Part shown: piece after piece, positions 21,747 to 50,262 of the stretch
Numbering within the stretch: position 1 is the stretch's first letter
Layout: each line of letters opens with the position of its first letter
IMG/VR virus record: IMGVR_UViG_3300046697_000178
Span: 1-50,262 of that record
Reading direction: 5' to 3' (one strand)
Source of the DNA: a virus
Length of the DNA stretch: 50,262 nt
Notes under the pieces: model-generated
The model's database searches: none
The model's input: the letters and a program-made list of their open reading frames with translations, nothing else
Told to the model about the DNA's origin: nothing
Position numbers and translations under genes: made by a program

Positions 21747-21820
21747 GTCGTAGTTTGGTCCCTTCACCGTCGCCTGGCCGGGCTAGCGGTGAAGTTTGGC
21801 CGGTAAATTGTCAAAGAATG

Positions 21821-21891
21821 TCGCTGGGACGGGATTCGCACCCGCGTTTGCTGGTTTTGAGCCAGCCGAGTTACTGCTACTCTACCCAGCG
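21821..21891 (-). tRNA. Atypical tRNA, anticodon CAA (Leu by anticodon) with a short variable loop; no encoded CCA.
   Basis: Cloverleaf folded by hand: CGCTGGG TA GAGT-AGCAGTA-ACTC G GCTGG-CTCAAAA-CCAGC AAAC GCGGG-TGCGAAT-CCCGT CCCAGCG A. The acceptor stem has 7 perfect bp, and U8, A14, A21, U33, A37 and G53-C61 are present. G18G19 and U55 are absent. Confidence 0.6.
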
Positions 21892-22397: not shown

Positions 22398-25300
22398 TCA
22401 CCACGCTCCTGCTGTTGTGCGGCCGAATCCGACAAAATCGTTTTCTTCTGCGCCGCTTGCCTTTTGCTGCCTTTGCTGCAAGCGGTAAGCCATCGTCCCA
22501 TATTTCGTACTTTGTTCTTCCGGCTCCCGTTTGTCAACACCAACCTGCTGAAAATCCTTCAGCGCCGTCCAGCACACGCCGCCCGCAATTGCCCGGTCGC
22601 CGTGCCCGGTGCCGTGGTACAGCATCCCGTCCTGGACCTTTTCGTCCCACTGCCAACCCGCACATTCTTTGATAAAATCTTCCGACCGGGGTAGGAACGT
22701 ACCTTCGGCAAAGGCAAACGACAGGTCGCCAAACAGGTCGGCCTTGGCCCCGCGGCTGTTGTTGTTCCAGCCCGCATCCCTTTGCCGGTCCTGGGAAAAC
22801 GAGCCTTCCTTGAGCGGCTTAATCCAGACGTGCGGGTAGAATTGCCCCTTCCGCACCTCGGCGCCAAAGGAACCGCCCGGACCCTGCCGTTCCCAGTTCA
22901 GCACGGCATCGTGCAGCCAACGACCGAAGGCCACACACAACTGCGCGAACGGCCGTGGCGCTATCTGCGGATCGGTGTACTCCAAAACCTGCTCGCCGTT
23001 CTTGTTCCGACAGCCAATCAGCACGGAATTGGAACGACTGGCCTCGCCCTCGCCCGTGCCAATGTCGGCCCCGAGGGTGAACTTGCCGCCGGGCGCCGCG
23101 TTGTTCAAGCCGGGTTTGAACCACAGCTTGAGTGGCCCGCCCGCTTGTGGCGTCAGCTTAAGTTCCCCATCTTCCAACCTCGCCCGCCCTTCCCAGACTG
23201 GCGGCTTGACCTTCTCCCGCAGCATCACTTCCAACACGTCCTTGTCGAACGGCTTGCCGGTCACCCCGTGCGCGTTCATGTCCAATTCACGGGCGATCCA
23301 CCGCGGCGTAGCACCCGGCAGCAGGCAGTAGGCGTCGTACCAGGGCGAACGGAACTTGCCGTCCAGCTTATGGCCGCGGCGCTCCAGCTTCCGCAGATCG
23401 CTGGCATGACGCCGAGCATACCGATCGACGGCCGCTTGCTCCTCCGGCCGGACGGCAACCAGCTTGCCGTCCCGCCACACGTAGGCGTTGCGGGTCTGCG
23501 CCGGGTTGTCTTTCCAGTCCAGCACCACCTTCAGCGGATTCTCTTCGTCAGTCGCCGCCTCATAGAAGGCCCCCGCATCGCCACCATAGGTTGAGACCAG
23601 GAACATGCAATTGTGGGAAAGAAGCGGACGTCCTCCGTCGTCAAGAACGGTGAACGCCCGCCGAGGACCGCAGTTCAAAAGGTCGTACACGGCCGCCGAT
23701 TTTTGGGTGGAAGCAATAGAGCATCCATCGAACAGCCCCTCTTGATGCGACCCAAAATCGCTCCATGTGTCACCCCAACCATCCTGGCAATCTGAGCCAG
23801 CGTGAGACTCACTGCTGAAATCTCGATGATATGGTTGCCGCGTCTGTTGTTCGACTGCTGCCGCATCGTCGCCCATTGGCAATTTTCCTTGCAATATCCC
23901 AAGTCGTTGTTTATCCGATCCAGCGTCAAGCCAGCGGGCTTCTCTCCCATATCGAACAAGAAGTTGTCGAACTTCAGCCATCTCTCGCATACCGCTATTC
24001 CTCGACCACCGTAATATCGGTACCGAGAATTCCGTGGGTTTGTGCATCTCTGCAACATACCCGCCCACGTGTGGTAACTCACTGTTTTGCTCATGCCGTG
24101 TGTGAAATGTGCAAGTCTGGCCGCAACCATCCGCTGACAACCGCAACTTTTCGTTAGCCCTCTGGTGAGACTCGTCCCGATCACCGATCGCTTCTCCCCA
24201 CAATCGCATCGGCAAATCCACTTTGCATGGCCTGGCGCTGCAGAGCCATCTCTCTGAATAACCTGGAGGCAACCGAATCTCTGCCCTGTCAATTCCTTTA
24301 GTGGCCTTGGCATACTTCCACCCTTCTTTCGTTAAGACCTGATGGTCTGGGGTAAGCCTGATCCGGTACGAACGGATCGTCTCGCGCCAACCCTGAAAAA
24401 TACAGCCATCATGCGACACCCACATTCTACCGTCCCAAACGCGATGATGTAACTGAACATCCTCTATGGGAATGGGACCGTGATCCGTCACCACCAGTGT
24501 CCCTCCGGCAAGGCAATTTGTGACGTGCGAAATCGAGGACAAGACCTTGTAGTCCTTGCCGGACGCAATGAACTCCTCCGAACCAAACTCGTCCAGGGCA
24601 AACACCGTCTGCCGCCCGCCGCGGCCCACATCGCTCGTGGCCGCAAACCCCGTAAAGATAGAGTTTTGCGCCGGGTTCCAGATGGTATGGTCGGACAGGC
24701 TCCGCTCGTACCCCAGCGGCAGGAACCACCACGGCAGCATCTTCAAACCCCAATCCACCTTCCACAGAATCGTGTTCTGATCGGTGGCCGAGTCTACCAG
24801 CTTCTCGTTGCGCGTCACCAGGCCGGCTGAGAACATCGGATCACGCAGAAACCGCCGCATCAGCACGTTGATGTAGGCGAAGGTCGCCCCCTGGGCGCGG
24901 CTCTTAGGCAGGGTCAGGGCGATCGGAGTGTCGCTGGCCTCGGCGTCGTGGATGGCCTGGTCCATCGCCAGGATTACCGGGTCTTGATGCGGCCAGGTGC
25001 AATTATGAACTAGTAGTTGGCGACCGTCATTTCCTAAGACCGCGAATGCCCGACGACCACCGCAATTGATGAGATCATAGACGACCGATTGTTTCTCTGT
25101 TCTTTCCATGTCGCCCATCGGCAATTGCGAGGCTTGTAATCGCCGTCTGGATCGATCCGATCTAGCGTCAATCCCGATGGCTTCTCCCCCATGTCCTTCA
25201 GGAAGTTCACGAATTGCTGCCACCGCTTGCACACTTTGATTCCGCGACCACCGTAGCGATGCCACATTCGATTGTTCGGATTGGTGCATCGTTGCCACAT

Positions 25301-25970
25301 CGCGCACCAAGTGTAATAGATCGGAGTTGGTTTTCTGCCTCTCATGTGTCCGTGAACAACTCCCCCCTTCAGACATCCGCAACTCGTTGTTTTGCCTCTC
25401 CGCATCTGGCCGCCATCCACTACGACCTTCTTTCCGCATCGACATCGACAAATCCACTTCGCGTGATGCCCCGTTTTCTGGGGATAATCCCCATCTCGCT
25501 CGATAACCGTCAGGTAGTCGAACACTTGCCCGGTCATATCCTTCGCTCGCCATTTTCCAGCCATGATCTGTATACACCCTATGATCTTTGGTGAGGTAAA
25601 CTCCATAGGCAAGCATGACAGACATGTGACCCTTGTACAAGGCCCCACCTTGAGAAATCCAAGAATCTCCATCCCACACAAGATCATCCTTTGTCACTTT
25701 TTCGATAGGGACAGAACCTCGGTCAGTGACAACAAGAGTGCCTGCCGCAATACAGAACGGCAGCACCTTCTCCTTGGCCCGCGGATTCATCAGCCACCCA
25801 AAGGCATTGAAGAAGAACAGCACATCCTGCATGGCCGCATTGTAGAGGCAGTATTGCAGCTGCGGATCATGCTCGGCCGCCTCCCGCATCCGCACCCGCC
25901 AAGCCAGATTGGCCGCGACCCCATCCTTCCACGTCGGCATGTACTCGATCCAGGGCGTGGCAGGATTCAT
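22398..25970 (-). CDS. terL: Terminase large subunit precursor containing two inteins (about 637-aa mature extein).
   Basis: Walker A LPKSRAQGATF, Walker B VFALDEFG, motif III FLVSTYGG, and a nuclease region LGADIGTGEGEASRSNSV. ATGA coupling at 25967..25970 (the track start at 25985 is TTG). Confidence 0.85.
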   Translation of the reverse strand: MNPATPWIEYMPTWKDGVAANLAWRVRMREAAEHDPQLQYCLYNAAMQDVLFFFNAFGWLMNPRAKEKVLPFCIAAGTLVVTDRGSVPIEKVTKDDLVWDGDSWISQGGALYKGHMSVMLAYGVYLTKDHRVYTDHGWKMASEGYDRASVRLPDGYRARWGLSPENGASREVDLSMSMRKEGRSGWRPDAERQNNELRMSEGGSCSRTHERQKTNSDLLHLVRDVATMHQSEQSNVASLRWSRNQSVQAVAAIRELPEGHGGEAIGIDARSDRSRRRLQASQLPMGDMERTEKQSVVYDLINCGGRRAFAVLGNDGRQLLVHNCTWPHQDPVILAMDQAIHDAEASDTPIALTLPKSRAQGATFAYINVLMRRFLRDPMFSAGLVTRNEKLVDSATDQNTILWKVDWGLKMLPWWFLPLGYERSLSDHTIWNPAQNSIFTGFAATSDVGRGGRQTVFALDEFGSEEFIASGKDYKVLSSISHVTNCLAGGTLVVTDHGPIPIEDVQLHHRVWDGRMWVSHDGCIFQGWRETIRSYRIRLTPDHQVLTKEGWKYAKATKGIDRAEIRLPPGYSERWLCSARPCKVDLPMRLWGEAIGDRDESHQRANEKLRLSADGCGQTCTFHTRHEQNSELPHVGGYVAEMHKPTEFSVPILRWSRNSGMREMAEVRQLLVRYGREARWLDAGSDKQRLGILQGKLPMGDDAAAVEQQTRQPYHRDFSSESHAGSDCQDGWGDTWSDFGSHQEGLFDGCSIASTQKSAAVYDLLNCGPRRAFTVLDDGGRPLLSHNCMFLVSTYGGDAGAFYEAATDEENPLKVVLDWKDNPAQTRNAYVWRDGKLVAVRPEEQAAVDRYARRHASDLRKLERRGHKLDGKFRSPWYDAYCLLPGATPRWIARELDMNAHGVTGKPFDKDVLEVMLREKVKPPVWEGRARLEDGELKLTPQAGGPLKLWFKPGLNNAAPGGKFTLGADIGTGEGEASRSNSVLIGCRNKNGEQVLEYTDPQIAPRPFAQLCVAFGRWLHDAVLNWERQGPGGSFGAEVRKGQFYPHVWIKPLKEGSFSQDRQRDAGWNNNSRGAKADLFGDLSFAFAEGTFLPRSEDFIKECAGWQWDEKVQDGMLYHGTGHGDRAIAGGVCWTALKDFQQVGVDKREPEEQSTKYGTMAYRLQQRQQKASGAEENDFVGFGRTTAGAW
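23610..24515 (-). mobile_element. Intein 2 (302 aa), inserted between Walker B and motif III of TerL.
   Basis: SISHVTN|CLAGGTLVVTDHG.. block-B-like LTPDHQVLT ..AAVYDLLNCGPRRAFTVLDDGGRPLLSHN|CMFLVSTYGG. Confidence 0.85.
23675..24313 (-). CDS. Endonuclease-like ORF (212 aa) nested in intein 2 in the +1 frame: zinc ribbon, LDRI..NCxWAT module and a C-terminal HTH.
   Basis: LTGQRFGCLQV..WICRCDCG..SCGC..YYGGRGIAVCERWLKFDNFLFDMGEKPAGLTLDRINNDLGYCKENCQWATMRQQSNNRR..SLTLAQIARMVGVTHGAILGRIKRG. It has its own ATG (24313) and stop, with GAAGGGTGGA upstream. Confidence 0.75.
   Translation of the reverse strand: MPRPLKELTGQRFGCLQVIQRDGSAAPGHAKWICRCDCGEKRSVIGTSLTRGLTKSCGCQRMVAARLAHFTHGMSKTVSYHTWAGMLQRCTNPRNSRYRYYGGRGIAVCERWLKFDNFLFDMGEKPAGLTLDRINNDLGYCKENCQWATMRQQSNNRRGNHIIEISAVSLTLAQIARMVGVTHGAILGRIKRGCSMDALLLPPKNRRPCTTF
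25002..25754 (-). mobile_element. Intein 1 (251 aa), inserted near the TerL N-terminus, upstream of Walker A.
   Basis: KEKVLPF|CIAAGTLVVTDRG.. block-B-like LTKDHRVYT ..VVYDLINCGGRRAFAVLGNDGRQLLVHN|CTWPHQ. Confidence 0.85.
25034..25564 (-). CDS. Endonuclease-like ORF (176 aa) nested in intein 1 in the +1 frame. It is a paralog of 23675..24313 and lacks the C-terminal HTH.
   Basis: MTGQVFDYLTVI..WICRCRCG..SCGC..YGGRGIKVCKRWQQFVNFLKDMGEKPSGLTLDRIDPDGDYKPRNCRWATWKEQRNN. Its tail overprints intein block F. Confidence 0.65.
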   Translation of the reverse strand: MAGKWRAKDMTGQVFDYLTVIERDGDYPQKTGHHAKWICRCRCGKKVVVDGGQMRRGKTTSCGCLKGGVVHGHMRGRKPTPIYYTWCAMWQRCTNPNNRMWHRYGGRGIKVCKRWQQFVNFLKDMGEKPSGLTLDRIDPDGDYKPRNCRWATWKEQRNNRSSMISSIAVVVGHSRS

Positions 25971-26236
25971 GTCCATGTCTCCCAACCGCCACCAGCATCC
26001 TTGTACTCTCTCGCAGCCTTCTCTAAAAGATCAATAATGCCAGCGGGCGTTCCATCCAACTGCCAACGCACCTTGCAGTCTGACCAATGCACGCGGAGTA
26101 GCATTGAAAGAAAAAAACGCTTCGCAATCGGTCCCAGTCGATCCTCTTCCTCTACACGAACATCAAACGGCATAGCGTTTGAGGAAATGATAGACGCGGG
26201 TATCTTGGTGCTGTTTTTCATGTTGAAAACTTTCAT
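25967..26236 (-). CDS. Hypothetical protein (89 aa) in a low-GC island.
   Basis: Track ORF. ATGA overlaps occur at both ends (26233..26236 with the upstream gene, 25967..25970 with terL). Confidence 0.55.
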   Translation of the reverse strand: MKVFNMKNSTKIPASIISSNAMPFDVRVEEEDRLGPIAKRFFLSMLLRVHWSDCKVRWQLDGTPAGIIDLLEKAAREYKDAGGGWETWT

Positions 26237-30658: not shown

Positions 30659-30828
30659 TGACCCTAGCAGAACTCGCATGGATCAAAGAACGTGGCCGGC
30701 TGTTCGGTCGGCCGCTATTCGACCCCGAGCCGGAGCGGACGCCCGAGCCCGAGCAGGTTCCCGAGCAAGCCCCGACATTCGACCTCTACGGCGACATTAT
30801 CATCGCCAGGATGGAGCAACCGACATGA
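30658..30828 (+). CDS. Small protein (56 aa, MTLAELAWIKERGRLFGRPLF..).
   Basis: My own translation. It is bracketed by TGATG (30656..30660) and ATGA (30825..30828) overlaps. Confidence 0.45.
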   Translation: MTLAELAWIKERGRLFGRPLFDPEPERTPEPEQVPEQAPTFDLYGDIIIARMEQPT

Positions 30829-31520
30829 AAGCCGTTCTTTACGCTCGTTTTTCACCTCGGCCGGATGCCGACACCAGTGACAGTATCGAAAAGCAGTCGG
30901 AGCGGCTGCGCGCTTTTTGCCTTGCCCGTGACTGGGAAATCGCGGGCGAGTACCAGGACGCCGACAAGAGCGGCGCGACAACTAAGGGCCGGATCGGGCT
31001 GGAAGACGCCATTGCCCACGCCTGCCGGCTGCGCTGCGTGCTTTTGGCCTACGATCCGTCCCGGCTGTCCCGCGATGTCGGCGACTCGGAAGCCATCGTA
31101 AAACGGCTGGAACGTCGCCACGCCACCCTAGCCACAGTTGTCGGCAACCTCGACCTGACCACGGCCCACGGCAGGCTGACCTTCCGTATCGAATGCTCGA
31201 TCAATGCCTTCAATCGAGAGATCGGCAACGAGCGTACCAGCAAGGCCATGAAACACCACCAGGACGTGAGTCGGCGCCGCATGGGCCGGGCGGATCGCGT
31301 GCCCTACGGGATGCGCGCCATCGAGGGCAACGGGCTCGAGCCGGACCACACCGAGCAGGTGATTATCCAGCGGATCATTGCACTGGACGCCGCGGGCATG
31401 AACTCTAGAACGATATGCCGGCAACTCGAAGCCGAAGGGTTCACGCGCCGGAGCGGGAAGCCTTGGCCGGGCGGACATCGACTTGTGCAGGCCGTATTGG
31501 ATCGCGCGGCCAAAGCCTGA
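30825..31520 (+). CDS. Short serine recombinase (231 aa): resolvase-type catalytic domain plus only the first part of a large-serine-recombinase 'recombinase' domain.
   Basis: MKAVLYARFSPRPD..SIEKQ (Y-x-R-x-S nucleophile context), ..DKSG.., ..RVPYGMR..EQVIIQRIIALDAAGMNSRTICRQLEAEGF. GGAG lies 8 nt upstream of the ATG at 30825. Confidence 0.8.
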   Translation: MKAVLYARFSPRPDADTSDSIEKQSERLRAFCLARDWEIAGEYQDADKSGATTKGRIGLEDAIAHACRLRCVLLAYDPSRLSRDVGDSEAIVKRLERRHATLATVVGNLDLTTAHGRLTFRIECSINAFNREIGNERTSKAMKHHQDVSRRRMGRADRVPYGMRAIEGNGLEPDHTEQVIIQRIIALDAAGMNSRTICRQLEAEGFTRRSGKPWPGGHRLVQAVLDRAAKA

Positions 31521-31529
31521 CTCAAATCC

Positions 31530-31955
31530 CTAATTTTCCGCCCGAGGCCCTGTTTGGTCGATTCCCTGCCCATTTGGGCGTCGTTCGGCGTGAATCCTGG
31601 CCAGTCGCTCGATTGCCGCTGCCTTCCGTTCCGGCGACAAGTACCATCGTTTCCTTGCTCGCATGATTTTGGCAACTTCGGTAAAATAGGAAACATCGAA
31701 CAAAACGGTTCCCTCTCCGAAGTCGCCATCCTGATGCACCTCGACAAACGGTAGGGCGTTCATCCGGCGCTGGATTCCTCGGTGGCCGTCGATCGACGCC
31801 GCGAGTCTTTCGCCACCATGCGGGTAAATGTGGCCGTAATGGCAGGGAATCAGCAGCCCCCAGGGATCACCGCTCTTTGCGCCCTCTTCCCGGCGAATCC
31901 GGTAATCGTGGCCGAATCTCTCTTTTAGGTCGATGCACGGCGGCGGTTCTCTCAT
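31530..31955 (-). CDS. Hypothetical protein (141 aa); the only leftward gene inside the early block.
   Basis: Track ORF with AAGGTG upstream of the ATG at 31955; protein-like composition. Confidence 0.6.
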   Translation of the reverse strand: MREPPPCIDLKERFGHDYRIRREEGAKSGDPWGLLIPCHYGHIYPHGGERLAASIDGHRGIQRRMNALPFVEVHQDGDFGEGTVLFDVSYFTEVAKIMRARKRWYLSPERKAAAIERLARIHAERRPNGQGIDQTGPRAEN

Positions 31956-32852
31956 AATTCACCTTTGCTAATAGTACCTCTCAAGCGCAGACCTCCCGCC
32001 TGGGTCCGCTCTCTCCCTCCCTCGCTCTAGGTTGCAGGGTTCCTGCTTCCGTGGCTCTTATTCCGCCTGACGTGTGCTTGTTCCCGTTTCCGAGTTCATG
32101 CGCGCACTAGTAGGATAAAAACACGAAAAAACAAGCGAAATCCTGTCTGCACCCTCTTCGCTTCGGTCGGTCGATCGCTTGGAGAGTCCATTCTCCCCCG
32201 TGCTGCTGGCGTTCCTGGTTTCCGCCGACCCCGTAGGGTACTTGCCCAACCTCGTGGATCTGCCCCACGTAGGTACAGGGCCAGCCTCGCAGACGCCCGA
32301 GCAGAATGGCCATCCCTGCGAGAGAATGGGCCGCCCGTCAACTGGCGCTACAGACCAATCAGGGAGCCGGCGCGGGTGCGATTCGCGTGTACGCATGATG
32401 TCCCGACTCCTGTTTATTGAGAAAAAACCCAGAAGCGGGCTTGAAAGAATCGGCGAAACCTGTAAGAATCCAGGAGTCGCGCGGTTCCGTTTCAACCGCT
32501 CATGTCAGCCGTTCGGGCTCAACATCCCCGAGCGGCTGATTCTTTTTGTAGGTATTCTCCCGATTCCCGTCAAGAGCAGTCCCAGACTTTCCTACCGAGC
32601 GCTGCGCCCGCTTTCGTTACACCGAAAAAATCATCTCCTTTCGCCGTATGGGGTTGCGAAACGTCTTTTTCAGATTTTGCTTGCTTCGGAAATATTCTCG
32701 ATTACATTTACAGCACCTTGACCCAAAGCAGCATGAAGCTCAAAACCCCCTACGACCGACCGCGTGCCATCCGGGCTTGGCGATCTATGCTGCTACTCGC
32801 AGCAAGGGTAAAGGAACCGCGGGAGCCACAAGAGCCCGCCGGTCGGTCTTTT

Positions 32853-32934
32853 TGCTTGGAACCTGGCGCTTCAGTGTGGGTTGGCCGGCGCTTGAATGGT
32901 CGCGCCGTCTCTGGGTTCGATTCCCAGCCAAGCT
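32853..32934 (+). other. tRNA-like element with a canonical T-arm and 3' acceptor strand plus a complementary 5' strand, but no foldable D or anticodon arms.
   Basis: CTGGG-TTCGATT-CCCAG (32911..32927) followed by CCAAGCT. GCTTGG at 32854..32859 pairs with it over 6 bp. The intervening 51 nt contain a GGCGCTT direct repeat and a CGGCGC/GCGCCG stem with a 10-nt loop. Confidence 0.45.
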
Positions 32935-32950
32935 CTGTCTTTCTTGTAGT

Positions 32951-32991
32951 CCCGCCGTTCTCCCGGTCATGCGGCCGGGCGGCGGGTTTTT
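32951..32991 (+). terminator. Strong rho-independent terminator just upstream of csrA.
   Basis: CCCGCCG-ttct-CCCGG-tcatgcgg-CCGGG-CGGCGGG followed by TTTTT. Confidence 0.7.
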
Positions 32992-33020
32992 AGGAATCTT
33001 TGCCTAGGAAGGTTATTCGC

Positions 33021-33275
33021 ATGCTCTGTCTGACACGAACTGTGGGGGAGTCAATCCAGATTGGTCCCGACATCGAGGTCGTGGTCTTGAAGTTCCGCGG
33101 CAAGCAGGTTCGCTTGGGCATCAGCGCCCCGCAGGCCGTGGCCGTTCACCGGACGGAGGTACTCAACACGCTGCGGCTGGAACGGGTGCGCTCCATGCTG
33201 CACGACAAGATGAGTCTGGCCGAGATTGAGGGTGTTTTGGACCGCGAAGACGAGGAGGAGCGGAGAGATGCGTAG
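33021..33275 (+). CDS. csrA: CsrA/RsmA-family RNA-binding translational regulator (84 aa) with an acidic C-terminal extension.
   Basis: MLCLTRTVGESIQIGPDIEVVVLKFRGKQVRLGISAPQAVAVHRTEV aligns almost position for position with E. coli CsrA [47 protein letters not shown]. Confidence 0.9.
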   Translation: MLCLTRTVGESIQIGPDIEVVVLKFRGKQVRLGISAPQAVAVHRTEVLNTLRLERVRSMLHDKMSLAEIEGVLDREDEEERRDA

Positions 33276-33576
33276 CGGACCTTCAGGCCTACACGACTGG
33301 GAACTGCTGATCGGAGATTCACAGGAATTGGCGATCCGTGGGACGGTCCACTGGAAAGTGACTCCGGGCGAGCCGATGGTCATGTACTACCCCGATGGTA
33401 GCGGCTATCCCGGCAGCCCGCCTGAGTGTGAGTTTTGGGGCGTGATAATTAACGAGATCGTCTTGGAGGGCGAACTGTCCGCCGGCGACTGGCCGAGCGA
33501 TTTGGAACTGAAGGTCGAGGAGTCTTTACGGGATCACATTTTCGAGAATCACTGTAGCGACGAGAGGAATGAGTAA
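33268..33576 (+). CDS. Hypothetical protein (102 aa).
   Basis: ATG at 33268 after GGAGGAG/GGAGAG; overlaps the csrA stop by 8 nt. Confidence 0.55.
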   Translation: MRSGPSGLHDWELLIGDSQELAIRGTVHWKVTPGEPMVMYYPDGSGYPGSPPECEFWGVIINEIVLEGELSAGDWPSDLELKVEESLRDHIFENHCSDERNE

Positions 33577-34269: not shown

Positions 34270-35029
34270 TTTATTTCCTTCAAGAGTTTGTGACGATGGG
34301 CCGCCAATGGTTCCATCCGGCGCTTTGGCGGTTCAGTCTTCGGCCGATCCGACGCCGCTGACGCTGATCGCAAAGATGATGGAGTCGGGGAAATTGACGG
34401 CCGAATCGGTGGCCGTAGCTGAGAAGCTGATGGCGATGCAAGAACACATTGAGGACCGGCAGGCGGAACGGGACTTTGCCCAGGCGTTTGCGGGGCTGCA
34501 AAGCGAGTTGACCAGCTTTCAGGCAACCAAGGCGGTGCCCGACAAGAATGGCAACACGCGGTACACCTACCTGCCATATGACGAGATCATGTTCAAGGTG
34601 CGGCCCCTCCTGGAACGATTTGGTTTTTCGGTCAGCTTCTCGACCGAGTTCATCGACGCCCGGATTCTTCAGACCTGCACGCTGCAACATCAGTGCGGCT
34701 ATCACCGCGACTACAAGGCATACGTCAGGGCTGGCAGTGGCCCGTATGGTGCCAACGAGGCTCAGGCCGATGGCGCCGCCATGAGCTACGCGAAGCGGTA
34801 TGCCCTCTGCAACGCTCTGAATATCGTGGTCGAGCACGACACGGACGCCCGGCTGGAAGGCGTCCCGATCACGCAAGAGCAGGCCGACACGCTCTGCCAG
34901 ATGGTCCACGACTCCCACTCCAACGAGCAGGCGTTCCTGAAGTACGCCGGGGCGTGCGACTACATTGAAATCGGCTCGAACCGCTATAACGATCTTTTCG
35001 CCGCGCTCAAAAAGAAGATGCCAAAATGA
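34250..35029 (+). CDS. erf: ERF-family single-strand annealing protein (about 256-259 aa).
   Basis: ..NTRYTYLPYDEIMFKVRPLLERFGF..AMSYAKRYALCNALNI.. is typical of the Erf superfamily. It is paired with an exonuclease gene through an ATGA overlap. Confidence 0.75.
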   Translation: MQTMGSDLFPSRVCDDGPPMVPSGALAVQSSADPTPLTLIAKMMESGKLTAESVAVAEKLMAMQEHIEDRQAERDFAQAFAGLQSELTSFQATKAVPDKNGNTRYTYLPYDEIMFKVRPLLERFGFSVSFSTEFIDARILQTCTLQHQCGYHRDYKAYVRAGSGPYGANEAQADGAAMSYAKRYALCNALNIVVEHDTDARLEGVPITQEQADTLCQMVHDSHSNEQAFLKYAGACDYIEIGSNRYNDLFAALKKKMPK

Positions 35030-35706
35030 AAACCTTCAAGTGCCCCCAGGGCAGTCCCGATTGGTTCCGAATCCGTCAGGGTGTTGTGACGGCTTCCGAG
35101 GTCGATAACCTGATAACCCCAGAATGGAAGCCAAGAACGGGTGAGGGCGTCAAAACGTATATGTGCCAGAAGATTGCCGAGCGTCTGCTGCCAATCGAGG
35201 AGGGCGAACGCCGCAGCGCGCCGTCGTGGGCTGCCGACCAGGGGCAGATTCTAGAAACGCTCGCCATTCCGTGGTTCGAGTTCGAGACTGGAAAAACAGT
35301 CGAGCGGGTCGGCTTCTGCCTTTCCGACGACGGCAAGATCGGCTGCTCGCCGGATGGGCTGATCGGCGACGACGCCGGGATCGAAACGAAATGTCCGCAG
35401 CCAAAGGCTCAGATTCGCTACTTGCTGGCCGGCGGCGTGCCGAAGGAGTATCTGGCGCAGGTGCATATGTCGCTGTTGGTGACGGGCCGGCAAACGTGGT
35501 GGTTTGTCTCGTACTCGCAAGACCTGCCGCGACTCATTGTGAAAGTCGAGCGCGACGAGACGATTTTGACAAAGCTACACCATACGATTTACGAGTTTTT
35601 GGACAAGATGGACGCGACCTTAGATAAGGTCGCGTCCCTCAATGTTCTGACACGATCATGTGTCGAGTCCGCCCCGGCCCCGGCCGACGATGACATCCCA
35701 TTTTAG
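35026..35706 (+). CDS. YqaJ / lambda-Exo-like PD-(D/E)XK recombination exonuclease (226 aa).
   Basis: QGSPDWFRIRQGVVTASE.., ..CSPDGLIGDDAGIETKCP.. (D..E-x-K). Confidence 0.8.
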   Translation: MKTFKCPQGSPDWFRIRQGVVTASEVDNLITPEWKPRTGEGVKTYMCQKIAERLLPIEEGERRSAPSWAADQGQILETLAIPWFEFETGKTVERVGFCLSDDGKIGCSPDGLIGDDAGIETKCPQPKAQIRYLLAGGVPKEYLAQVHMSLLVTGRQTWWFVSYSQDLPRLIVKVERDETILTKLHHTIYEFLDKMDATLDKVASLNVLTRSCVESAPAPADDDIPF

Positions 35707-36562: not shown

Positions 36563-36759
36563 TGTTTCCGGCAGCGATCCAGTTTGACCGGCGCTACAGC
36601 GGCAAGGACGGCACGATCCGCCACATCGTCGGCCGGGGCGACCGGAGCGTGGACTATCAGCCGGGGCCGGAGCGCGACAGGCTACAGCTTGCCGTGAGGA
36701 TGTCCCTCATGGAGTTTGCGGCCTGGGCACAAGAAGAACACGAAAGGATAGAGCCATGA
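36562..36759 (+). CDS. Hypothetical protein (65 aa).
   Basis: TGATG overlap at 36560..36564 and ATGA overlap at 36756..36759. Confidence 0.5.
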   Translation: MFPAAIQFDRRYSGKDGTIRHIVGRGDRSVDYQPGPERDRLQLAVRMSLMEFAAWAQEEHERIEP

Positions 36760-37418
36760 ATGCCACAACGATGACATTTGATTTCGGAGATGGCCGAGGC
36801 GCGGTGCCGGCATTTAGACATGCAAACCCAGACGGCACCGAGGGCGGAGTATGTGCTGCAAGCGCAATAGTTCCTGAATCGGCCAGCGTGCATCGCAGCG
36901 CGCAAATCGGGGACGGCTGCACGCTCGGGAACGGCTGCACGCTCGGGTACCGCTGCACGCTCGGGAACGACTGCAAGCTCGGGTACGGCTGCACGCTCGG
37001 GGACGGCTGCACGCTCGGGTACGGCTGCACGCTCGGGTACGGCTGCAAGCTCGGGAACGACTGCAAGCTCGGGTACGGCTGCAAGCTCGGGAACGGCTGC
37101 ACGCTCGGGAACGGCTGCACGCTCGGGAACGACTGCAAGCTCGGGTACCTCTGCACGCTCATGGACGGCTGCACGCACATAAAGCAACCGCTCGTCATTT
37201 TCGGAACACGGCACATCGTCTGTATGGTTTCAGACACAGAACTGCAAATTGGCTGCATTGTGAAATCACTGGAGTTTTGGTTGACCGACATTCATGGCAA
37301 TCACGAAGTCGGTCATTCACAAGGCTACAGCGATGCAGAGATTTCCGAGTACGACCGCTACGTTCTCTTGGCGGCGGAAATGTACCCTCAAGCAGTCGGC
37401 ACGAAGACTACCGACTAA
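36756..37418 (+). CDS. Hexapeptide-repeat (left-handed beta-helix type) protein (220 aa) with a Cys in nearly every repeat.
   Basis: About 15 consecutive L-G-x-x-C-(T/K) hexads (LGNGCTLGYRCTLGNDCKLGYGCTLGDGCT..). Confidence 0.75.
   Translation: MNATTMTFDFGDGRGAVPAFRHANPDGTEGGVCAASAIVPESASVHRSAQIGDGCTLGNGCTLGYRCTLGNDCKLGYGCTLGDGCTLGYGCTLGYGCKLGNDCKLGYGCKLGNGCTLGNGCTLGNDCKLGYLCTLMDGCTHIKQPLVIFGTRHIVCMVSDTELQIGCIVKSLEFWLTDIHGNHEVGHSQGYSDAEISEYDRYVLLAAEMYPQAVGTKTTD
36906..37175 (+). repeat. Tandem 18-bp repeat (about 15 units, consensus ctcgggaacggctgcacg) encoding the hexapeptide pairs.
   Basis: Read directly. The units differ mainly at aac/tac/gac and acg/aag positions. Confidence 0.9.
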
Positions 37419-40639: not shown

Positions 40640-41224
40640 ATGACACTACCGCACGGAATCAAGACGGGACACGCAAGCAAGCTGCCGGGCGACTATCGAC
40701 CGCAAGGGGTTGAGCCGCCCGTGGCGCAGAAAAAGCGCCGCACGAGTGCGGAGTGGCTGACGTGCTACCTGGCCACCCCGCCCGCTCCTGAGCAGAGTGC
40801 GGTCGAACGCCAGCAGCAGCGCGACCTATTCGCGCGACACGATGCCGTGGTGTTGTCCATCCGTTTGCCGCTGGCCCCCAGTGCCAACAACCTCAAGTCG
40901 ATTCAGACGCTTCCGGGCCATAGGCCCTTCCTCGTTCCCTCCACGCAGTACAAAGCCTACAAGAAGGCTGTGGCCACATTTTGGCAGAGACACTTCCAGG
41001 GCTGGACGCCGGGGCCGCTGACGGGCCGCTTGCGATTGACGATCCTTGTGCATCAGGCCCGCAACGGTGGCGACATCGCCAATCGGGAAAAGGCGCTGTG
41101 CGACTCATTGAGCGAGTGTGGGGCCTGGCTGGACGACGTGCAGATTGACGATCTACATTTGATTCGCGGGGACGTGTTGCCCCCGTACGGTGCGATCGAC
41201 CTGACGATCGAAACTATTTCCTAG
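40640..41224 (+). CDS. rusA: RusA-family Holliday junction resolvase (194 aa, long N-terminal extension).
   Basis: LPLAPSANNL..VPSTQYKAYKKAV..GDIANREKALCDSLSECGAWLDDVQIDDL (the D-x-x-N..K..D..DD pattern). Confidence 0.75.
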   Translation: MTLPHGIKTGHASKLPGDYRPQGVEPPVAQKKRRTSAEWLTCYLATPPAPEQSAVERQQQRDLFARHDAVVLSIRLPLAPSANNLKSIQTLPGHRPFLVPSTQYKAYKKAVATFWQRHFQGWTPGPLTGRLRLTILVHQARNGGDIANREKALCDSLSECGAWLDDVQIDDLHLIRGDVLPPYGAIDLTIETIS

Positions 41225-41891: not shown

Positions 41892-42302
41892 GTGGGATGC
41901 TTAGACGGTAGTGCAGCTTCATGGAACGACGAGGGGCCGGGTGAATATTGGGAACCATCCAAATCCTGGATCAAAAAACACCGTGGCGTCATAGAAGAGG
42001 TTACGAATACACCCCAATCAAAGTCCGCACTTCAGCCATGCGGTCCATCTTACGAAGATGTGCGAAAAGCCAAACGACGCCTCGATAAGGCAACACGAGC
42101 CGCCTGCGACATGCGAACGATCCTTCGTCGATCAGGATTAGAACACGAACTGACCAAGGAAACGCGAAAATGGATAAAAAAACACGACGGCGAAGATGCT
42201 GCCCGCATTCAGAACGAAGATAAAAGCGGCGAGCGTGAAGGCACACGACGCAAGGCTTTGGACAAGCTGACTTTAGACGAGCGTCGTGTATTGGGGCTAT
42301 AG
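41892..42302 (+). CDS. Basic hypothetical protein (136 aa, GTG start).
   Basis: Track ORF. Its stop overlaps the convergent stop of the minus-strand gene. Confidence 0.5.
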   Translation: MGCLDGSAASWNDEGPGEYWEPSKSWIKKHRGVIEEVTNTPQSKSALQPCGPSYEDVRKAKRRLDKATRAACDMRTILRRSGLEHELTKETRKWIKKHDGEDAARIQNEDKSGEREGTRRKALDKLTLDERRVLGL

Positions 42303-43019
42303 CCGCTCGACGGAGAGCAGCGCGTCAGTTCCCGCCTCGACGTGATCGGTTCGCTTCTGTAGCGTCTTGAACTTGAACCGCGGATCGAGCGGCAAGATCA
42401 GATTGCACTGACTGCCCCAGCGCACGACGTGCGACCGCTGGTTCTGAGACAGCGGGGCATGGTGGCGATGATCGAACGGCAAAATGGCATTCACGTCCGA
42501 GTCGGCCAGAAGCACCATGTAGTATTCGTACTGCATGGGCGTGTTGTTGATGCGGCACAAGACCCTGGCGTTCGTGGCCATGTAGCGCAGGTCGATCTTG
42601 CTGACCACGCCCTTCTTCACGATGCTCTGTTCTTCGTACAACATCGGCAGGTTGGCCGTCCTGATGGGATCGACGTGCTGATTCGTCAGGATGCCGCTGG
42701 TCGGCATGCGCACGATATGCACGTCGTAGAAGCTGAGGAACACCCCGATTACCAAACATGGCTGGTCGATCTTCCACGGCTTTAGGAGGTCGGAGAGCGT
42801 CACGTCCACGCCCTTGGCTTCAATCACGTCGCCCGCGGGTGCCACCCGGCTCTGGCTGATGATCGTACCATCAACCGGCGAGAAAAACTTCGAGGAGTCG
42901 ATCTGCTGGGCGCGGCAGGGATCGCGGAAGAATTTTTCGTGCGACATGACCTTCAAGGACACGTCGCCGTACTTCTCCATCGCTTCCTTCCGCCAAACCG
43001 ACATTGGGGTAGACATCAT
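42297..43019 (-). CDS. Phosphatidylserine-decarboxylase-family (pyruvoyl-dependent) decarboxylase homolog (240 aa).
   Basis: FFSPVDGTI (SPxDG), VFLSFYDVHIVRMPTSG (compare LSPxDYHRxHxPxxG) and VRWGSQCNLIL (compare F-x-LGST self-cleavage site). GAGGG lies upstream of the ATG. Confidence 0.7.
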   Translation of the reverse strand: MMSTPMSVWRKEAMEKYGDVSLKVMSHEKFFRDPCRAQQIDSSKFFSPVDGTIISQSRVAPAGDVIEAKGVDVTLSDLLKPWKIDQPCLVIGVFLSFYDVHIVRMPTSGILTNQHVDPIRTANLPMLYEEQSIVKKGVVSKIDLRYMATNARVLCRINNTPMQYEYYMVLLADSDVNAILPFDHRHHAPLSQNQRSHVVRWGSQCNLILPLDPRFKFKTLQKRTDHVEAGTDALLSVERL

Positions 43020-43026
43020 GCCCTCG

Positions 43027-43890
43027 CTAGAATCCGTATGAAGCGGTGACGCAGTGAAGCAGGCCGCCTTCTTGTGCCAGGTCGATACACTCGATGCCTT
43101 TGATCGTCACGTCCGGGTACCATTTCCGCAAAGCAAGATCAGTGTCGTGGTCCTTCGCAACTCCGAACTTTGGATAGAGAATCAATCCTTCCGTTTGCAG
43201 AAAATTGCAGTAGTAGCCGACAGCCGGCCCGTAGGCGTCACCGTCAGGATACTTGGCCCGAAACTCGACTTCCGAAATGATGTGCGACTGGTAGCCGAAA
43301 GGGAACGGCTCGACCCACAGGCAGGCCGCCAACAGAGCTTCCCTGAGTCGTCGCCCGTACTCTTGCTGCTCGTACACCCACGTCAAGTTGTAATCGTTGA
43401 CAAGCACCGTATTCTGGTTGACCCACTTGCATAGGCCGTCGCTATGCCCCAGGTCGTCTTCCGGCTCTACCGGCAGCAGGATGATCTCGGCCTCCAGCAA
43501 CTCTTCGAGGTCGTCGATTAGTCCGACCTTCGAGCAATCCGGGTTGTGCTGAAATACGATCTCGGTCATCAGCACGCGATCGCGGTAGCGAACCACGTTG
43601 CCGCCGTCCAGGCGAATGTGGGACTCGCGCACGTCGCCGATGTGCCGCCAGCACTCTTCCGGGACGTGCAACTGCGGCCAGCGTTTCTCGTCATGCTGGT
43701 AGCGGAACTTAACGAAATGGTCGCCAACTTGCAGGGGCATGAAGTCCCGCGCCCAGATGTTCGCCGTGCCGGAAATCAGCTTGACCTCGACGCCAGCCCC
43801 CGACAGTTCGTTGACCATCGTGTCGAAGACAACGGGATGCCGCGCGAGAGCGGCGGTCAGATAGACGCAGTTGGTGTGCGAGTCGGTCAT
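43027..43890 (-). CDS. Agmatine deiminase / PAD_porph-like guanidino-group-modifying enzyme (287 aa).
   Basis: NIWARDFMP (W-x-RD), RLDGGNVV, DLGHSDGLCKWV (GHxD) and AQEGGLLHCVTASY (catalytic Cys context GGxxHC). ATGA overlap at 43887..43890. Confidence 0.7.
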   Translation of the reverse strand: MTDSHTNCVYLTAALARHPVVFDTMVNELSGAGVEVKLISGTANIWARDFMPLQVGDHFVKFRYQHDEKRWPQLHVPEECWRHIGDVRESHIRLDGGNVVRYRDRVLMTEIVFQHNPDCSKVGLIDDLEELLEAEIILLPVEPEDDLGHSDGLCKWVNQNTVLVNDYNLTWVYEQQEYGRRLREALLAACLWVEPFPFGYQSHIISEVEFRAKYPDGDAYGPAVGYYCNFLQTEGLILYPKFGVAKDHDTDLALRKWYPDVTIKGIECIDLAQEGGLLHCVTASYGF

Positions 43891-44879
43891 ATTAGTGGCG
43901 TGGTGTAAGAGGCACGGTTGAGATGGAGACAACAGCACGAGCAAGCGGCGCCCGACTTCTCGAATTCGCTGAGGTTCACGGGGATGGGGTCCATGCCGTA
44001 CTTCGGCAACGTCTTCTCGAAGAAGGCTTTCTTGTCGCACTCGTCGTCGTAGTCGTCGTCGTCCTTGGTCAGTCCGGTCAGGGTGGCCCCGTAGAAAATT
44101 GCCGATCCGACGCGCACGGCATTAGTCGTGGCAGCGTGGGCCAGCCGCTTGCTGATGGGCACGATCTCGACGATCTTCTCGATGGCCTTCTTCTCCTCGG
44201 GCGTCATTAAGGCCGGGCAGGCAATGACGGTTTCCGTGGTGAGCGGGAAGAGGTTGCAGTCAAAGTGGTAGCACCATTCATCCGTCATCTTGACGCGGAT
44301 GATCTGCATGTCGAACTTCTTCTCCATCCAGTCGTAGGTCTTCTCGTCGGTGCGGATGCCGTAGCCGCCGATGTAGAGGTCGTCGCGGATGTGCTTCAAG
44401 TCGGCCTCGCCCTCGAACGTGGTCGCTGGGCGGTCGATCTTGTATTCCATGATCTCAAAGAGGTCGATGCCGATCTTCTCTTCGCCCTTCCGCGGCGGGC
44501 TCTTGAAGTTGGCGGCCACGAAGACGGGCTTGGGCAGGTGACAGAGGACGATGCCGATGTTGGCCACGTAGATCAAGTCCTGAAAGTCTTCGGAGGGTTT
44601 GGACGGCAGCGTTTCGATATAGGCCCCGCAGCCGACCATCGTCTGGTAGAGGTCGTACCATTGCCGGTGGGCGAGTTGAAAGTCGGGCTGCAACTCTTCG
44701 GCCGACATCTTCTGCATCCAAATGTTGTTGGGCGCATCGCAATCCCACGAGAAGGGCCGATTCATCAGGAAGGCCGGCACGTCCGACTGGCTGGGGTTGT
44801 CCAGTTGCACGTTGGGATCCGGCTTCTTGTCCGGGTTGCTTTCTCCTTGCTTCGGCTTGACCAGTGGCTTTGTGCCCAT
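43887..44879 (-). CDS. Amidinotransferase-fold enzyme (330 aa), DDAH/CtlX-like.
   Basis: AFLMNRPFSW..APNNIWMQ (an N-terminal motif of the arginine-deiminase-related/CtlX group), FEGEADL..LYIGGYGIRTD, HFDCNLFPL and a C-terminal SEFEKSGAACSCCCLHL (catalytic Cys region). Confidence 0.65.
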   Translation of the reverse strand: MGTKPLVKPKQGESNPDKKPDPNVQLDNPSQSDVPAFLMNRPFSWDCDAPNNIWMQKMSAEELQPDFQLAHRQWYDLYQTMVGCGAYIETLPSKPSEDFQDLIYVANIGIVLCHLPKPVFVAANFKSPPRKGEEKIGIDLFEIMEYKIDRPATTFEGEADLKHIRDDLYIGGYGIRTDEKTYDWMEKKFDMQIIRVKMTDEWCYHFDCNLFPLTTETVIACPALMTPEEKKAIEKIVEIVPISKRLAHAATTNAVRVGSAIFYGATLTGLTKDDDDYDDECDKKAFFEKTLPKYGMDPIPVNLSEFEKSGAACSCCCLHLNRASYTTPLI

Positions 44880-44888
44880 CGTTATTCC

Positions 44889-47800
44889 TTATTTGAACGG
44901 CTTGAATGAATCATGGCCAGACGAAGAATCCGAGGAGCCTTTTGGCTTCGGCTCGTTCGGCACGGGTGTTATGCCGATGAGGGAGGCGGCTTTTTCGCCG
45001 ATGGTCCTTGCTCTGGTGGTTTTGTTCCTGCCTTTCCCTTCCGTCAACTCTTGCATGTTGCGGATTGAGAACGGCAAAAACTGCTCGGCGATATAGGTTC
45101 CCAACTGCTTGACCTGCTCGACCTGGGGATCGTTTTCGTTGCGGATCGGGTGGTAGTAGAAATCTCGGTTGTTGGCCATTTGAGAAACTGCTGCCAACAG
45201 CGGGTGGGTCTTGCTTATCGCGGTGCGAGGAATGTCTTGAGACAACCAACCGACCGGATCGCCTTTGAGAAGGTGCTTGAACCAAGAGCCAAGATCGCGC
45301 ATGTACGTCGCCAACTCAACCTTCTTCTCATTCCCGTCTGCATCCAGTTGGCCGGTGGGAATGTGGAAGAAGTCAGGCAAGGATCGCGGGCCGTGGCCGG
45401 TGTACATGAAATTCATCGCCGCCCCCATGATGCCCGTGACAAAGGGCAGAGCGAGTGTATAACTCGCGGCATGGGTCAACTTCGGATTCCGACCGTTAAG
45501 CAAATCGACAGGCACTTTTCCGAGGTCGCGGATTCCGCCGCCAAGTTCCCGGAAGGTTCCCAGGTTCCAACCCATCGAACGGGTCAGGATCGTGCCCATA
45601 TCCTTGAGCGACTTGTTCCAAAATAGGTTGTCGTAGATGAGCTGTCCCATGCGGTTGTCCACGCTGTCAACGACCTTGCCCATCACGTCCCGCATTTGTG
45701 CCCGATCGGCGCCAGCCGGCAGCTTCGACAATTCGTAGCGGGCCATGTCAGCCATCACGCCCAACTTCATGCGGGGAATGTAGACTTCCATCATCGGACG
45801 AGAGGCTTGTTCGATCAGGGCGAGCGGTCCCTGGATCGCAGCGGACGGTCGCCCTTCCCGCAACGCCTTGCGGAACCCGTCCCAAAAGGTTGTTGCCTCC
45901 TTGCCGATCCGGTACATTTGGCTCTGCCGCGTGCGGAAGCCGCCGGCCTGAAGACCGTCAACGATGGCAGCAAAGTCCCCGCCGACAGAACCGGGATGCA
46001 AGGCTTCCTCCAGAACTTTGCTGCCACCGAGGAGCGTGCTGACCGGCGCCGTCCAAGCCTTCAGTCCCATCTTCACCGATTCGAGCGGGTGCCCTTCGAC
46101 GAGCATCTTCGCCGCCAGCGCAGACCTGGAAACGATGGCGTTGATCGTTGTGCCCGTGACGTGGAAGCCTGACAGGCCAAGCTGCGCCATGTTCATGGCG
46201 TTGCCCGCGAATCGAATGGCATCGTAGACCGGGTTTCCGACTAGGCCGGGCGACAGGTAATTGTTCAGCACGCGGGCGGCGTCGGGATGGGCGTAGTAGT
46301 CGCCGCGTTTAAGCAGTTCTGGCGGCCCTTTCGATCCATCGGGGTTTGTTGTTGGCCGCCGCTGAAAGACTTCGCCGATCTTGTCGTTGATCTTTACCCA
46401 ACCAGCCGGCTTGTCCTTCGGACCGTGCACCAGCTTGATGTAACCGCTGTCCTTGCCTTCCTGAAGAACCTGTTGCCCCATGACGTAGCGATTCATTTCG
46501 TGGAGCTTTAGCAGCGTCAGATCGACCGGGTTGCTGGTGATCGGTTCCAGCCCAAGGGCGAGACCTTCTTTTGTGGTGGGGATCGTTCGCTTCTTCAAGA
46601 ACGACTTTGACCCTTCCAGCGGTCGCTTGCCGAAAATCTCCTCCGCCTTGGCCTTGTCCTTCCAGATGTGCGGGAAGTAATCCTTGATGAACTTGTCGAG
46701 GTTTCCTTTGCCGAGGGCCTGGACGCGACCACGGGCCTCGTCCAGCAGCGTCCGCATCGCTAGGGCAGCAGCGTCATGCTTGGTATTCCACCATGCCGGC
46801 TTAGCGGCCTTTGGGACTTCGATCGCGTGGATGAAGTCGTACTGCTGCTGTTGTGGCAGCTTGGCGGCGACTTGGCCGAATTGGTCCAGCAGGGCCTTGG
46901 CTTGCTCGTGCTGTAAGGCCAGCTTTGCGGCCCGTTCGCGGACGTTGCCGGCCATAGCCTTTGACTCGCCGCCGGCCTGCGTGGGGTTAAAGGCTTCGGC
47001 TAGCCCCTTGCCGACCTTGCCGACCGCCTCCGCGGCAATTTCGAGGTCTTTGGCAGCGCCGGGCGGCAAGAGCATGGCGTGAAAAACATTGGGCTCTGGT
47101 TCGCTGCCCTCGGTATTGAAGAGGTCTTGCTGTCCGGGCGCTCCCTCCTTGGAAAGCATGGTCTTTTGGACTTCCTTGCCGTGATCGGCCCCCTTCCATG
47201 CTTCCGGCTTGCCTTGGGGAGTCGGTTGCAGAGCGAAGTCGTCCTGTCCTTCCGGCTTGGCTTCGGCGTGCCCCTTATCCCGCAATGTGTTGATGTGGGA
47301 GATCGTATCCTCGGGATCATCAAACGGTGTGCCCAGCAGTTCAGATAAACGCTGCGCCAGTTCATCGGGCTGGCCGGATCGCACCGAGGCAATCGACTGG
47401 TCGAGCATTTTGTCGCGTGTCTCGGGGTCGGCCATCAGTGGCTTGGCAACCGGGTCTCTGTTGTCCTCCATCTCCTGGTAGCCCTGCCCTTGCTTCTCAA
47501 TACTCTTGTCTCTGAAGATGGGCCTCTGATAGCTGACCGCTTGCTTGGCCAGCTTCTCTTTCATGTTCTCGACACCCGGCCCCACATCGCGGCCGGCATC
47601 GTCAATGATCTTCTGAAGCGGCCCGACCTTGGCCTTGTCGGGCTTAGCCTTGGCGTTCTCGGCGTCCAGGGCACCTTGTGCCCATTGCTGCATGGCCTTC
47701 TTTGCCGCCACGGGGAGTTCGTGGAGCGGGGCGTACTTCACAGCCTCTGGTATAATCTTTCCGTTGGCCACGTCCTGGGCGGCCTGGGCGCGATCCTCTT

Positions 47801-50234: not shown

Positions 50235-50262
50235 TGCTTCTGCTTGGCCTCGAACTGAGACT
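50235..50262. repeat. Terminal direct repeat, copy 2.
   Basis: Identical to 1..28. Confidence 0.9.

Follow-up and report, generated by a model that had tools for sequence, protein, structure and literature searches.

Does this viral genome encode its own version of CsrA, a global translational regulator, and, if so, what would the protein act on? The gene in question lies at positions 33021 to 33275 of IMG/VR virus record IMGVR_UViG_3300046697_000178, which we analysed over its whole length of 50,262 nucleotides (nt; hereafter the window). We conclude, with a probability of about 0.72, that csrA encodes a CsrA-family RNA-binding translational regulator and is an accessory early gene of a novel, probably temperate, phage of peat bacteria. 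The more specific proposals, above all that the protein represses its own translation, are possible to different degrees and are weighed below.

The csrA product belongs to the CsrA/RsmA family

The gene has the following layout:

33021 to 33275, plus strand: csrA homologue, with ATG at 33021 and stop codon TAG at 33273-33275; 84 amino acids (aa), with the CsrA fold in residues 1 to about 54, followed by a long acidic C-terminal helix

Judged from its sequence, the 84-aa product is a genuine member of the CsrA/RsmA family, and this assignment is secure. The protein matched the Pfam family PF02599 (CsrA) with 76.1 bits against a cut-off of 27 (E-value 2e-21), residues 1-50 aligning to the 53-position model, and it exceeded both NCBIfam equivalog cut-offs (75.8 against 73 for NF002469 and 74.1 against 70.1 for TIGR00202). 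It also matched PHROG 9500, annotated as 'CsrA-like regulator' (E 2e-21), and solved CsrA, RsmA and RsmE chains from the PDB aligned to it with E-values between 4.5e-13 and 1e-11. The codon-position periodicity of the csrA frame, measured as third-position G+C, was the strongest in the neighbourhood.

Public gene calls place the start of csrA at GTG 33042, which gives a protein of 77 aa (P0001) and cuts off the conserved MLxLTR strand (MLCLTRT here). When translation starts at ATG 33021, residues M1, L2, L4, T5 and R6 line up with those of the relatives (alignments of 22 and 43). We used ATG 33021 as the start because the homology alignment supports the conserved N-terminal strand at this position. 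Exact-protein searches with the public start at GTG 33042 would therefore miss the true N-terminus.

To compare single residues, we took the residue frequencies of 52 single-domain relatives from a HMMER search against a protein library. L2, R6, R44 and E46 are invariant among these 52 and all four are kept in the phage protein; L4, T5, V40, V42 and H43 are near-invariant and likewise all present. In the alignments with relatives, the invariant positions G15, G33, A36 and P37 are kept as well. Thus all RNA-binding residues of strands beta1 and beta5 (L2, L4, R6, V40, V42, H43, R44 and E46) are in place, and both the fold signature and the numbering of the RNA-binding residues are the same as in E. 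coli CsrA and Pseudomonas RsmA/RsmE (PDB 1Y00, 1VPZ and 2JPP). An AlphaFold2 monomer model, built on a 44-sequence alignment, predicted strands at residues 11-14, 18-26 and 29-35 and one continuous helix from 44 to 83, with moderate confidence (mean predicted local distance difference test score, pLDDT, 74; predicted template modelling score, pTM, 0.39).

The original prediction, made from the DNA letters alone, had described an 84-aa CsrA/RsmA product with the RNA-binding fold and an acidic tail of 30 aa, had suggested PF02599 for a profile check, and had named substitution of key RNA-binding residues as what would speak against it. The PF02599 match, together with the NCBIfam, PHROG 9500 and PDB matches and the conserved residues, bears this description out. 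The tail covers residues 55-84, has a net charge of -4 and ends in DREDEEERRDA. The invariant core is intact, and the unusual residues (T, F and T) are limited to positions 7, 25 and 45.

A divergent member of the phage CsrA proteins

HMMER searches over 1.84 billion representatives yielded no other match at or below an E-value of 1e-30, and the closest single-domain relatives were 61-63% identical over the CsrA domain only. A word-index search returned only the csrA product itself and one 53% match. In IMG/VR, one match with 51% identity (L004) resembled the protein in its long tail, acidic at the end, in its R at position 55 and in the overlap with the next gene; in its context, no other gene is in common with this phage. 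A match from GTDB (L005), 47% identical, came from a Pseudothermotoga metagenome-assembled genome. Another protein, 53% identical (L003), lies in what appears, by eye only, to be a cellular fliW-csrA locus with a fliW-like open reading frame (ORF) just upstream.

Many of the top-scoring library matches carry two to four tandem CsrA domains (P0003, P0006, P0049 and others). P0003, for instance, is 303 aa long and has four matched stretches, an architecture unlike that of the single-domain dimer.

Phage-borne CsrA is not new. It is represented in PHROG 9500 and PHROG 5527 (PHROGs hold three CsrA-type families), in the phages F116 and DC1, and in 88 GenBank phage records in which CsrA was found by tblastn. 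In addition, phage CsrA/RsmA homologues have been surveyed across GenBank and IMG/VR, and anti-CRISPR and host-manipulation roles have been proposed for them (Campa et al. 2021, PMC8450108). By comparison with these sequences, the protein studied here is a divergent new member of this known kind.

As in Pseudomonas phage F116 (gp24), Burkholderia phage DC1 and Providencia phage PSTCR8lys, a CsrA domain is found here on a phage of temperate type. In F116 and PSTCR8lys, csrA lies between the cI repressor/immunity genes and the exonuclease/recombination region, and the neighbourhood in the window is the same. F116 gp24 (123 aa) has a C-terminal extension too, although the tail sequence here is unrelated to it. 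The GenBank phage copies are at most 58% identical to csrA of the window, and only over residues 1-48 to 1-58. The known csrA phages have no other recognisable gene in common with this phage, whose host lives in peat and is not a gammaproteobacterial model. The role proposed for phage CsrA, manipulation of host regulation or defence, can be proposed for this copy in the same way.

Other mobile elements offer a parallel. RsmQ of plasmid pQBR103 is described as taking over host regulation (PMC9928087), and Legionella CsrA paralogues on integrative conjugative elements are cited in PMC8450108. In each case a mobile element has its own Csr/Rsm copy, which presumably imposes or adjusts post-transcriptional control in the host. 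The carrier is phage-like here but conjugative for RsmQ and the Legionella elements, and a takeover of host regulation by the phage CsrA is suggested by analogy.

On the reading that we favour, csrA would be transcribed early, with transcription reading through a strong hairpin 30 nt upstream, and the product would form the dimer usual for the family, a domain-swapped homodimer with five beta-strands and a C-terminal helix; its sequence matches to solved dimers reach an E-value of 4.5e-13. The protein would then bind GGA sites at the ribosome-binding sites of host and/or phage mRNAs and block their translation, which would shift host physiology or the expression of defence genes during infection or lysogeny. 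Having R55, it should be insensitive to an antagonist of the FliW type. It may also feed back on its own ribosome-binding site and, by translational coupling, on the next gene, but such feedback is not specifically indicated.

If active, this CsrA would be a distant, environmental (peat) addition to the evidence for phage-borne global translational regulators that reprogram the host or damp defences such as CRISPR-Cas (PMC8450108). With its unusual residues at the specificity positions 7, 25 and 45 and with R55, it could serve as a natural variant in work on how CsrA selects its targets and escapes antagonists. Phage CsrA as a concept, with many examples, is already in the literature, and this locus makes no open question newly testable.

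csrA heads an early operon on a circular, phage-like genome

The window covers a complete genome of about 50.23 kb that is circular or circularly permuted. Its first 28 nt (1-28) recur at its end (50235-50262), a 559-aa gene straddles the end-to-start junction, and this junction is spanned by an independently recovered 50,472-bp contig of the Joint Genome Institute (JGI), in which the same circular sequence is opened at another point. The element is present in at least seven peat metagenomes. The two JGI peat contigs with csrA encode an identical CsrA protein, and low-depth contigs of other peat runs match the window unchanged wherever csrA is covered.

csrA is the first ORF after a control region and heads an early operon that leads to ERF, YqaJ and RusA:

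31956 to 33020, no strand assigned: largely non-coding divergent control region of about 1 kb, between a leftward 141-aa gene and csrA
34307 to 35706, plus strand: ERF single-strand annealing protein and YqaJ exonuclease, in the same operon downstream of csrA (Pfam ERF, E 9e-18; YqaJ, E 1e-19)
40640 to 41224, in the operon downstream of csrA: RusA, found in the PHROG search

Relatives of YqaJ (50-76% identity) lie on contigs that are either too short or have no csrA within 6 kb. The evidence is weakly consistent with csrA being an accessory gene that was acquired sporadically. Its assignment to PHROG 9500 as a gene on a viral genome follows the profile match (E 2e-21) and the circular, phage-like genome, in which no capsid, portal or terminase profile matched. 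That the carrier is a phage is well supported, though not proven, and the phage is probably novel and temperate.

Several points weigh against the favoured reading. In the protein, position 7 is T, where 48 of the 52 relatives have R or K; position 25 is F, where 42 have V or I; and position 45 is T, where 43 have E, K or Q. In a functional survey, activity on a heterologous target was predicted by positions 7, 11, 25, 45 and 47 (PMC13443453). Canonical GGA specificity is thus an assumption for this protein, because T7, F25 and T45 sit at activity-determining positions. Compared to E. coli and Pseudomonas CsrA, the phage protein has T7 for R/K, F25 for V/I and T45 for E, besides 23 extra C-terminal residues, and the three substitutions may shift its target preference. 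Concerning the carrier, searches with Pfam, PHROGs and tblastn picked out no gene for a terminase, portal or capsid protein, not even when a 1195-aa ORF (described below) was searched in its intein-free form. The term 'phage' rests on the early genes, on matches to PHROG families of unknown function and on the form of the genome, since no structural gene was recognised. Searches for the host yielded none, the provenance being a peat metagenome, and none of the RNA-seq runs contains the csrA region.

The leader carries two GGA sites, and autoregulation is possible

Around csrA, the following elements bear on its own translation and on that of the next gene:

32951 to 32991, plus strand: terminator-like hairpin (stem-loop 32951-32986) whose 14-bp stem has an internal loop, with U5 after it; minimum free energy (MFE) -27.4 kcal/mol, also found in the centroid structures
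32991 to 32996, plus strand: candidate CsrA site 1, the sequence UAGGAA with GGA at 32993-32995, adjoining the U-tract of the hairpin
33005 to 33012, plus strand: ribosome-binding site UAGGAAGG, which is also candidate CsrA site 2 (GGA at 33007-33009) and ends 8 nt before the ATG
33268 to 33576, plus strand: 102-aa ORF with ATG at 33268, overlapping the csrA stop codon by 8 nt (ATGCGTAG); no Pfam, PHROG or NCBIfam family

The original prediction had read this leader as one that begins at the upstream terminator and holds two GGAs in the geometry by which a CsrA dimer occludes ribosome binding. Its reading of the letters was accurate: the two GGAs lie where it placed them, 14 nt apart from start to start, the second is within the Shine-Dalgarno sequence, and the next gene overlaps the csrA stop codon by 8 nt. 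More precisely, the second GGA is inside AGGAAGG (33006-33012), and AGGA (33006-33009) overlaps the Shine-Dalgarno sequence. On this basis one CsrA dimer could bridge the UAGGAA sites at 32991-32996 and 33005-33010 and repress its own synthesis, while the 8-nt overlap would co-regulate the next gene.

This proposal has precedents. The 14-nt spacing falls inside the 10-63 nt over which a CsrA dimer can bridge two sites (cited in PMC4066749). E. coli CsrA represses its own translation at a site that overlaps its Shine-Dalgarno sequence, and the glgC leader is a case of two-site bridging (PMC7652899). As in the window, the E. coli csrA leader has AGGA in its own Shine-Dalgarno sequence; it has four sites, compared to two candidates here (PMC7652899). 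Repression that is passed on by translational coupling is known from iraD. Moreover, both leader sites read TAGGAA; no second pair of identical hexamers of this kind occurs in the window, and 0 of 100 shuffles gave one, the pattern having been chosen post hoc. We estimated the chance of three extra matching flanking bases at about 1 in 64, again post hoc, and the identical hexamers are a modest plus for autoregulation.

The geometry itself, however, does not discriminate. A GGA in the zone from -16 to -6 was found in 18 of the 28 called genes of the genome, and 9 of the 28 have a GGA in the ribosome-binding zone and a second one within 45 nt. The GGA pair of the csrA leader is thus not above chance, as the pattern recurs in about a third of the genes; the predicted two-site arrangement stands as far as the bridging range is concerned but does not set csrA apart. 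We also re-implemented the CSRA_TARGET rule (PMC4066749), which requires at least three sites. With its two primary sites, the csrA leader failed this rule, whereas six other genes passed. In addition, neither leader site has an ACA or A-N-GGA context.

In read-through transcripts, site 1, which abuts the U-tract, is predicted to pair with UUCUUG at 32941-32946, and the probability that its GG is unpaired is only 0.01-0.02. In the same folds, the AGGA of site 2 can be exposed as the loop of a short 4-bp hairpin (GCCU/AGGU), with a probability of 0.4-0.77 of being unpaired. When a short leader was modelled, the two sites paired with each other.

The hairpin and its U5 are real, although a simple consensus terminator scan did not flag the stem-loop at 32951-32986; a T-run is absent from its reverse strand. 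Between the U-tract and the csrA ATG there are only 30 nt, and a sigma-70-type promoter would not fit between hairpin and site 1, so the part of the prediction that started the leader at the terminator was not supported. A sigma-70-like promoter scan of the control region gave a single match, at 32441-32469 on the plus strand. We consider that csrA is probably expressed by read-through from upstream.

Comparison with other leaders gave no further support. The leaders of other phage csrA genes are inconsistent, with one GGA in F116 and three at other spacings in the Providencia phage. For a conservation test, we found no diverged homologue of the leader in the word index, the HMMER library, IMG/VR, GTDB or the other peat runs. 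Taken together, autoregulation is plausible by precedent and possible, yet it is not indicated here beyond what any GGA-type ribosome-binding site would suggest, and we regard it as the less probable outcome.

The 102-aa ORF is probably translationally coupled to csrA; its ribosome-binding site, GAGGAGGAGCGGAGAG, falls within the codons for the acidic tail of CsrA. Relatives of this ORF (about 40% identity) were found in 13 IMG/VR contigs, and in 0 of these 13 was a CsrA nearby. We therefore rejected the 102-aa neighbour as a dedicated partner of CsrA.

GGA-dense clusters flank csrA in and beyond the control region

Upstream of csrA, two features on the minus strand raise the question of whether CsrA could act within the phage itself:

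31530 to 31955, minus strand: divergent 141-aa gene; no Pfam, PHROG or NCBIfam family
31996 to 32106, minus strand: purine-rich stretch dense in GGA (9 in 100 nt), lying upstream of the 141-aa gene; a possible target of CsrA or a decoy for it

The control region itself showed no codon periodicity in 31940-32180 and 32300-33020, its public-pipeline ORFs had no Pfam match, and it contains no Rfam family. We counted GGA in 100-nt windows on both strands (mean 1.55, standard deviation 1.35). The two densest clusters have 9 GGA each (top 0.05%): one is the minus-strand stretch listed above, and the second, at about 33225-33354, takes in the 3' end of csrA, with the acidic-tail codons and the ribosome-binding site of the next gene.

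The two clusters could be the targets of a phage-internal switch. CsrA would either repress the 141-aa gene through its GGA-dense leader or be titrated by this leader as a decoy, and it would act on the ribosome-binding site of the 102-aa gene, as a post-transcriptional counterpart of Cro. That the two densest clusters of the genome, on either strand, lie within 1.1 kb of csrA fits this idea, as does the position of csrA, first in the early operon and facing the control region. The minus-strand cluster, where codon periodicity is lacking, also holds four primary A(N)GGA sites by the site table of PMC4066749. The plus-strand cluster, however, is explained by codons for acidic residues, and the one on the minus strand is a generic purine-rich tract, and the 141-aa gene's ribosome-binding site lacks an A(N)GGA. 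In the MFE fold its GGAs are not systematically placed in hairpin loops, whereas sRNA-antagonised Csr/Rsm systems have a sponge small RNA (sRNA) with GGA in hairpin loops. Rfam searches found no sRNA of the CsrB, RsmY or RsmZ type in the window. We estimated a chance of about 4% for the densest minus-strand cluster to fall so close to csrA, in a test made post hoc. An internal switch is thus unlikely. A broader form, in which CsrA would be a post-transcriptional master switch that binds the 31996-32106 leader as well as its own and the next gene's ribosome-binding sites, in a Cro- or antisense-like manner, and is immune to FliW through R55, is slightly less probable still.

Just before the terminator-like hairpin, the control region contains one further element:

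32873 to 32934, plus strand: tRNA-like element with a perfect T-arm (CUGGGUUCGAUUCCCAG) and an acceptor-like stem of 6 out of 7 pairs, without a normal anticodon arm

We considered the T-arm-like sequence GGGTTCGATTCCC (32911-32927) as a sign of a tRNA, a tmRNA or an attachment site. ARAGORN returned nothing at default settings or with '-ps', and only junk at lower thresholds, and this candidate was rejected. Rfam gave only a sub-threshold, mascRNA-like match for the element (E 0.21), and none of its 22-23-mers was matched exactly in GTDB genomes or IMG/VR.

In places, the control region is hypervariable or mosaic. One peat run (X7) contains a variant of it at 32212-32358, a stretch of 148 nt in which it shows 19 differences and 3 indels; the contig of the same run that covers csrA (33162-33361) is identical to the window.

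The acidic tail and position 55

The long tail raises a different possibility, namely that the C-terminal helix soaks up antagonists of the host CsrA (sponge sRNAs or FliW) and thereby frees the host protein. The tail is about as long as the C-terminal helix of FliW-regulated CsrA proteins (Bacillus, Geobacillus and Campylobacter; PDB 5DMB), and in some species FliW docks on this helix (PMC13443453). Among solved structures, the FliW-bound Geobacillus CsrA in 5DMB gave the longest alignment, over residues 2-69. The closest cellular matches with a named context are fliW-csrA-type loci (L003, and L005 from Pseudothermotoga).

Position 55 argues against such a role. N55 contacts Q124 of FliW, is required for FliW binding and is reported to be invariant where FliW is present (bioRxiv 10.1101/2020.07.02.184341). 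Unlike FliW-regulated CsrA, the phage protein has R at this position, and its gene lies outside a flagellar operon. Among the 52 relatives, position 55 is N in 21, R in 13 and K in 11. Of the two features that define the FliW-antagonised subclass, N55 and a partner fliW, the first is replaced by R55; as for the second, no fliW was noticed next to csrA or elsewhere in the window, for which no dedicated fliW scan was made. As R55 takes the place of N55, the protein is presumably non-responsive to a FliW-type antagonist. As 24 of the 52 relatives have R or K at this position, non-responsiveness would be a property of a class and not an escape specific to the phage. Taken by itself, the tail matched no solved chain in the PDB significantly, and the intact RNA-binding face favours direct binding of RNA. 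A decoy function is accordingly very unlikely. That csrA is a decaying or non-functional passenger without a role for the phage is just as improbable: it is an orphan (nothing above about 63% identity among the 1.84 billion representatives), related loci lack csrA and the residues at positions 7, 25 and 45 are unusual, but the ORF is intact with a very strong codon-position bias, every invariant residue is kept, the ribosome-binding site is good, and the protein is unchanged between the two JGI peat contigs, with other peat runs matching wherever the gene is covered.

Other features of the carrier genome

Outside the csrA region, we noted the following features:

30825 to 31520, plus strand: small serine recombinase (Pfam Resolvase, E 1e-24), weakly similar to CcrB and XisF; it lies upstream of the control region and converges on the 141-aa gene
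21820 to 21891, minus strand: tRNA-Leu (CAA), between the intein-bearing ORF and a 595-aa portal-like ORF
22398 to 25985, minus strand: 1195-aa ORF with two paralogous intein-like insertions, at 25002-25754 and 23610-24515

The two insertions of the 1195-aa ORF are 251 and 302 aa long, are 37% identical to each other and have weak Hint and homing-endonuclease matches. Each starts with C(I/L)A(A/G)GTLVVTD and ends with HN, followed by C. The spliced product of 642 aa would carry the motifs SRAQGAT and ALDEFG, which resemble the Walker motifs of a terminase ATPase by eye only, and it has no PHROG match. The genome as a whole gave three strong matches to PHROG families of unknown function and weak matches to collagen-like tail fibres.

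An 18-nt unit is repeated 15 times (88% matches) at 36907-37176 on the plus strand, inside an ORF at 36756-37418, where it encodes a 6-aa repeat. Public contigs of this phage break or diverge at this repeat.

Beside a 1639-aa ORF at 44889-49808, the minus strand carries three enzyme-like genes in a row (42297-44879), an unusual cargo. According to precomputed annotations of a public contig, they belong to PS_Dcarbxylase, PAD_porph (agmatine/peptidyl-arginine deiminase type) and, weakly, a DDAH type. Two of the three strongly match PHROG families of unknown function.

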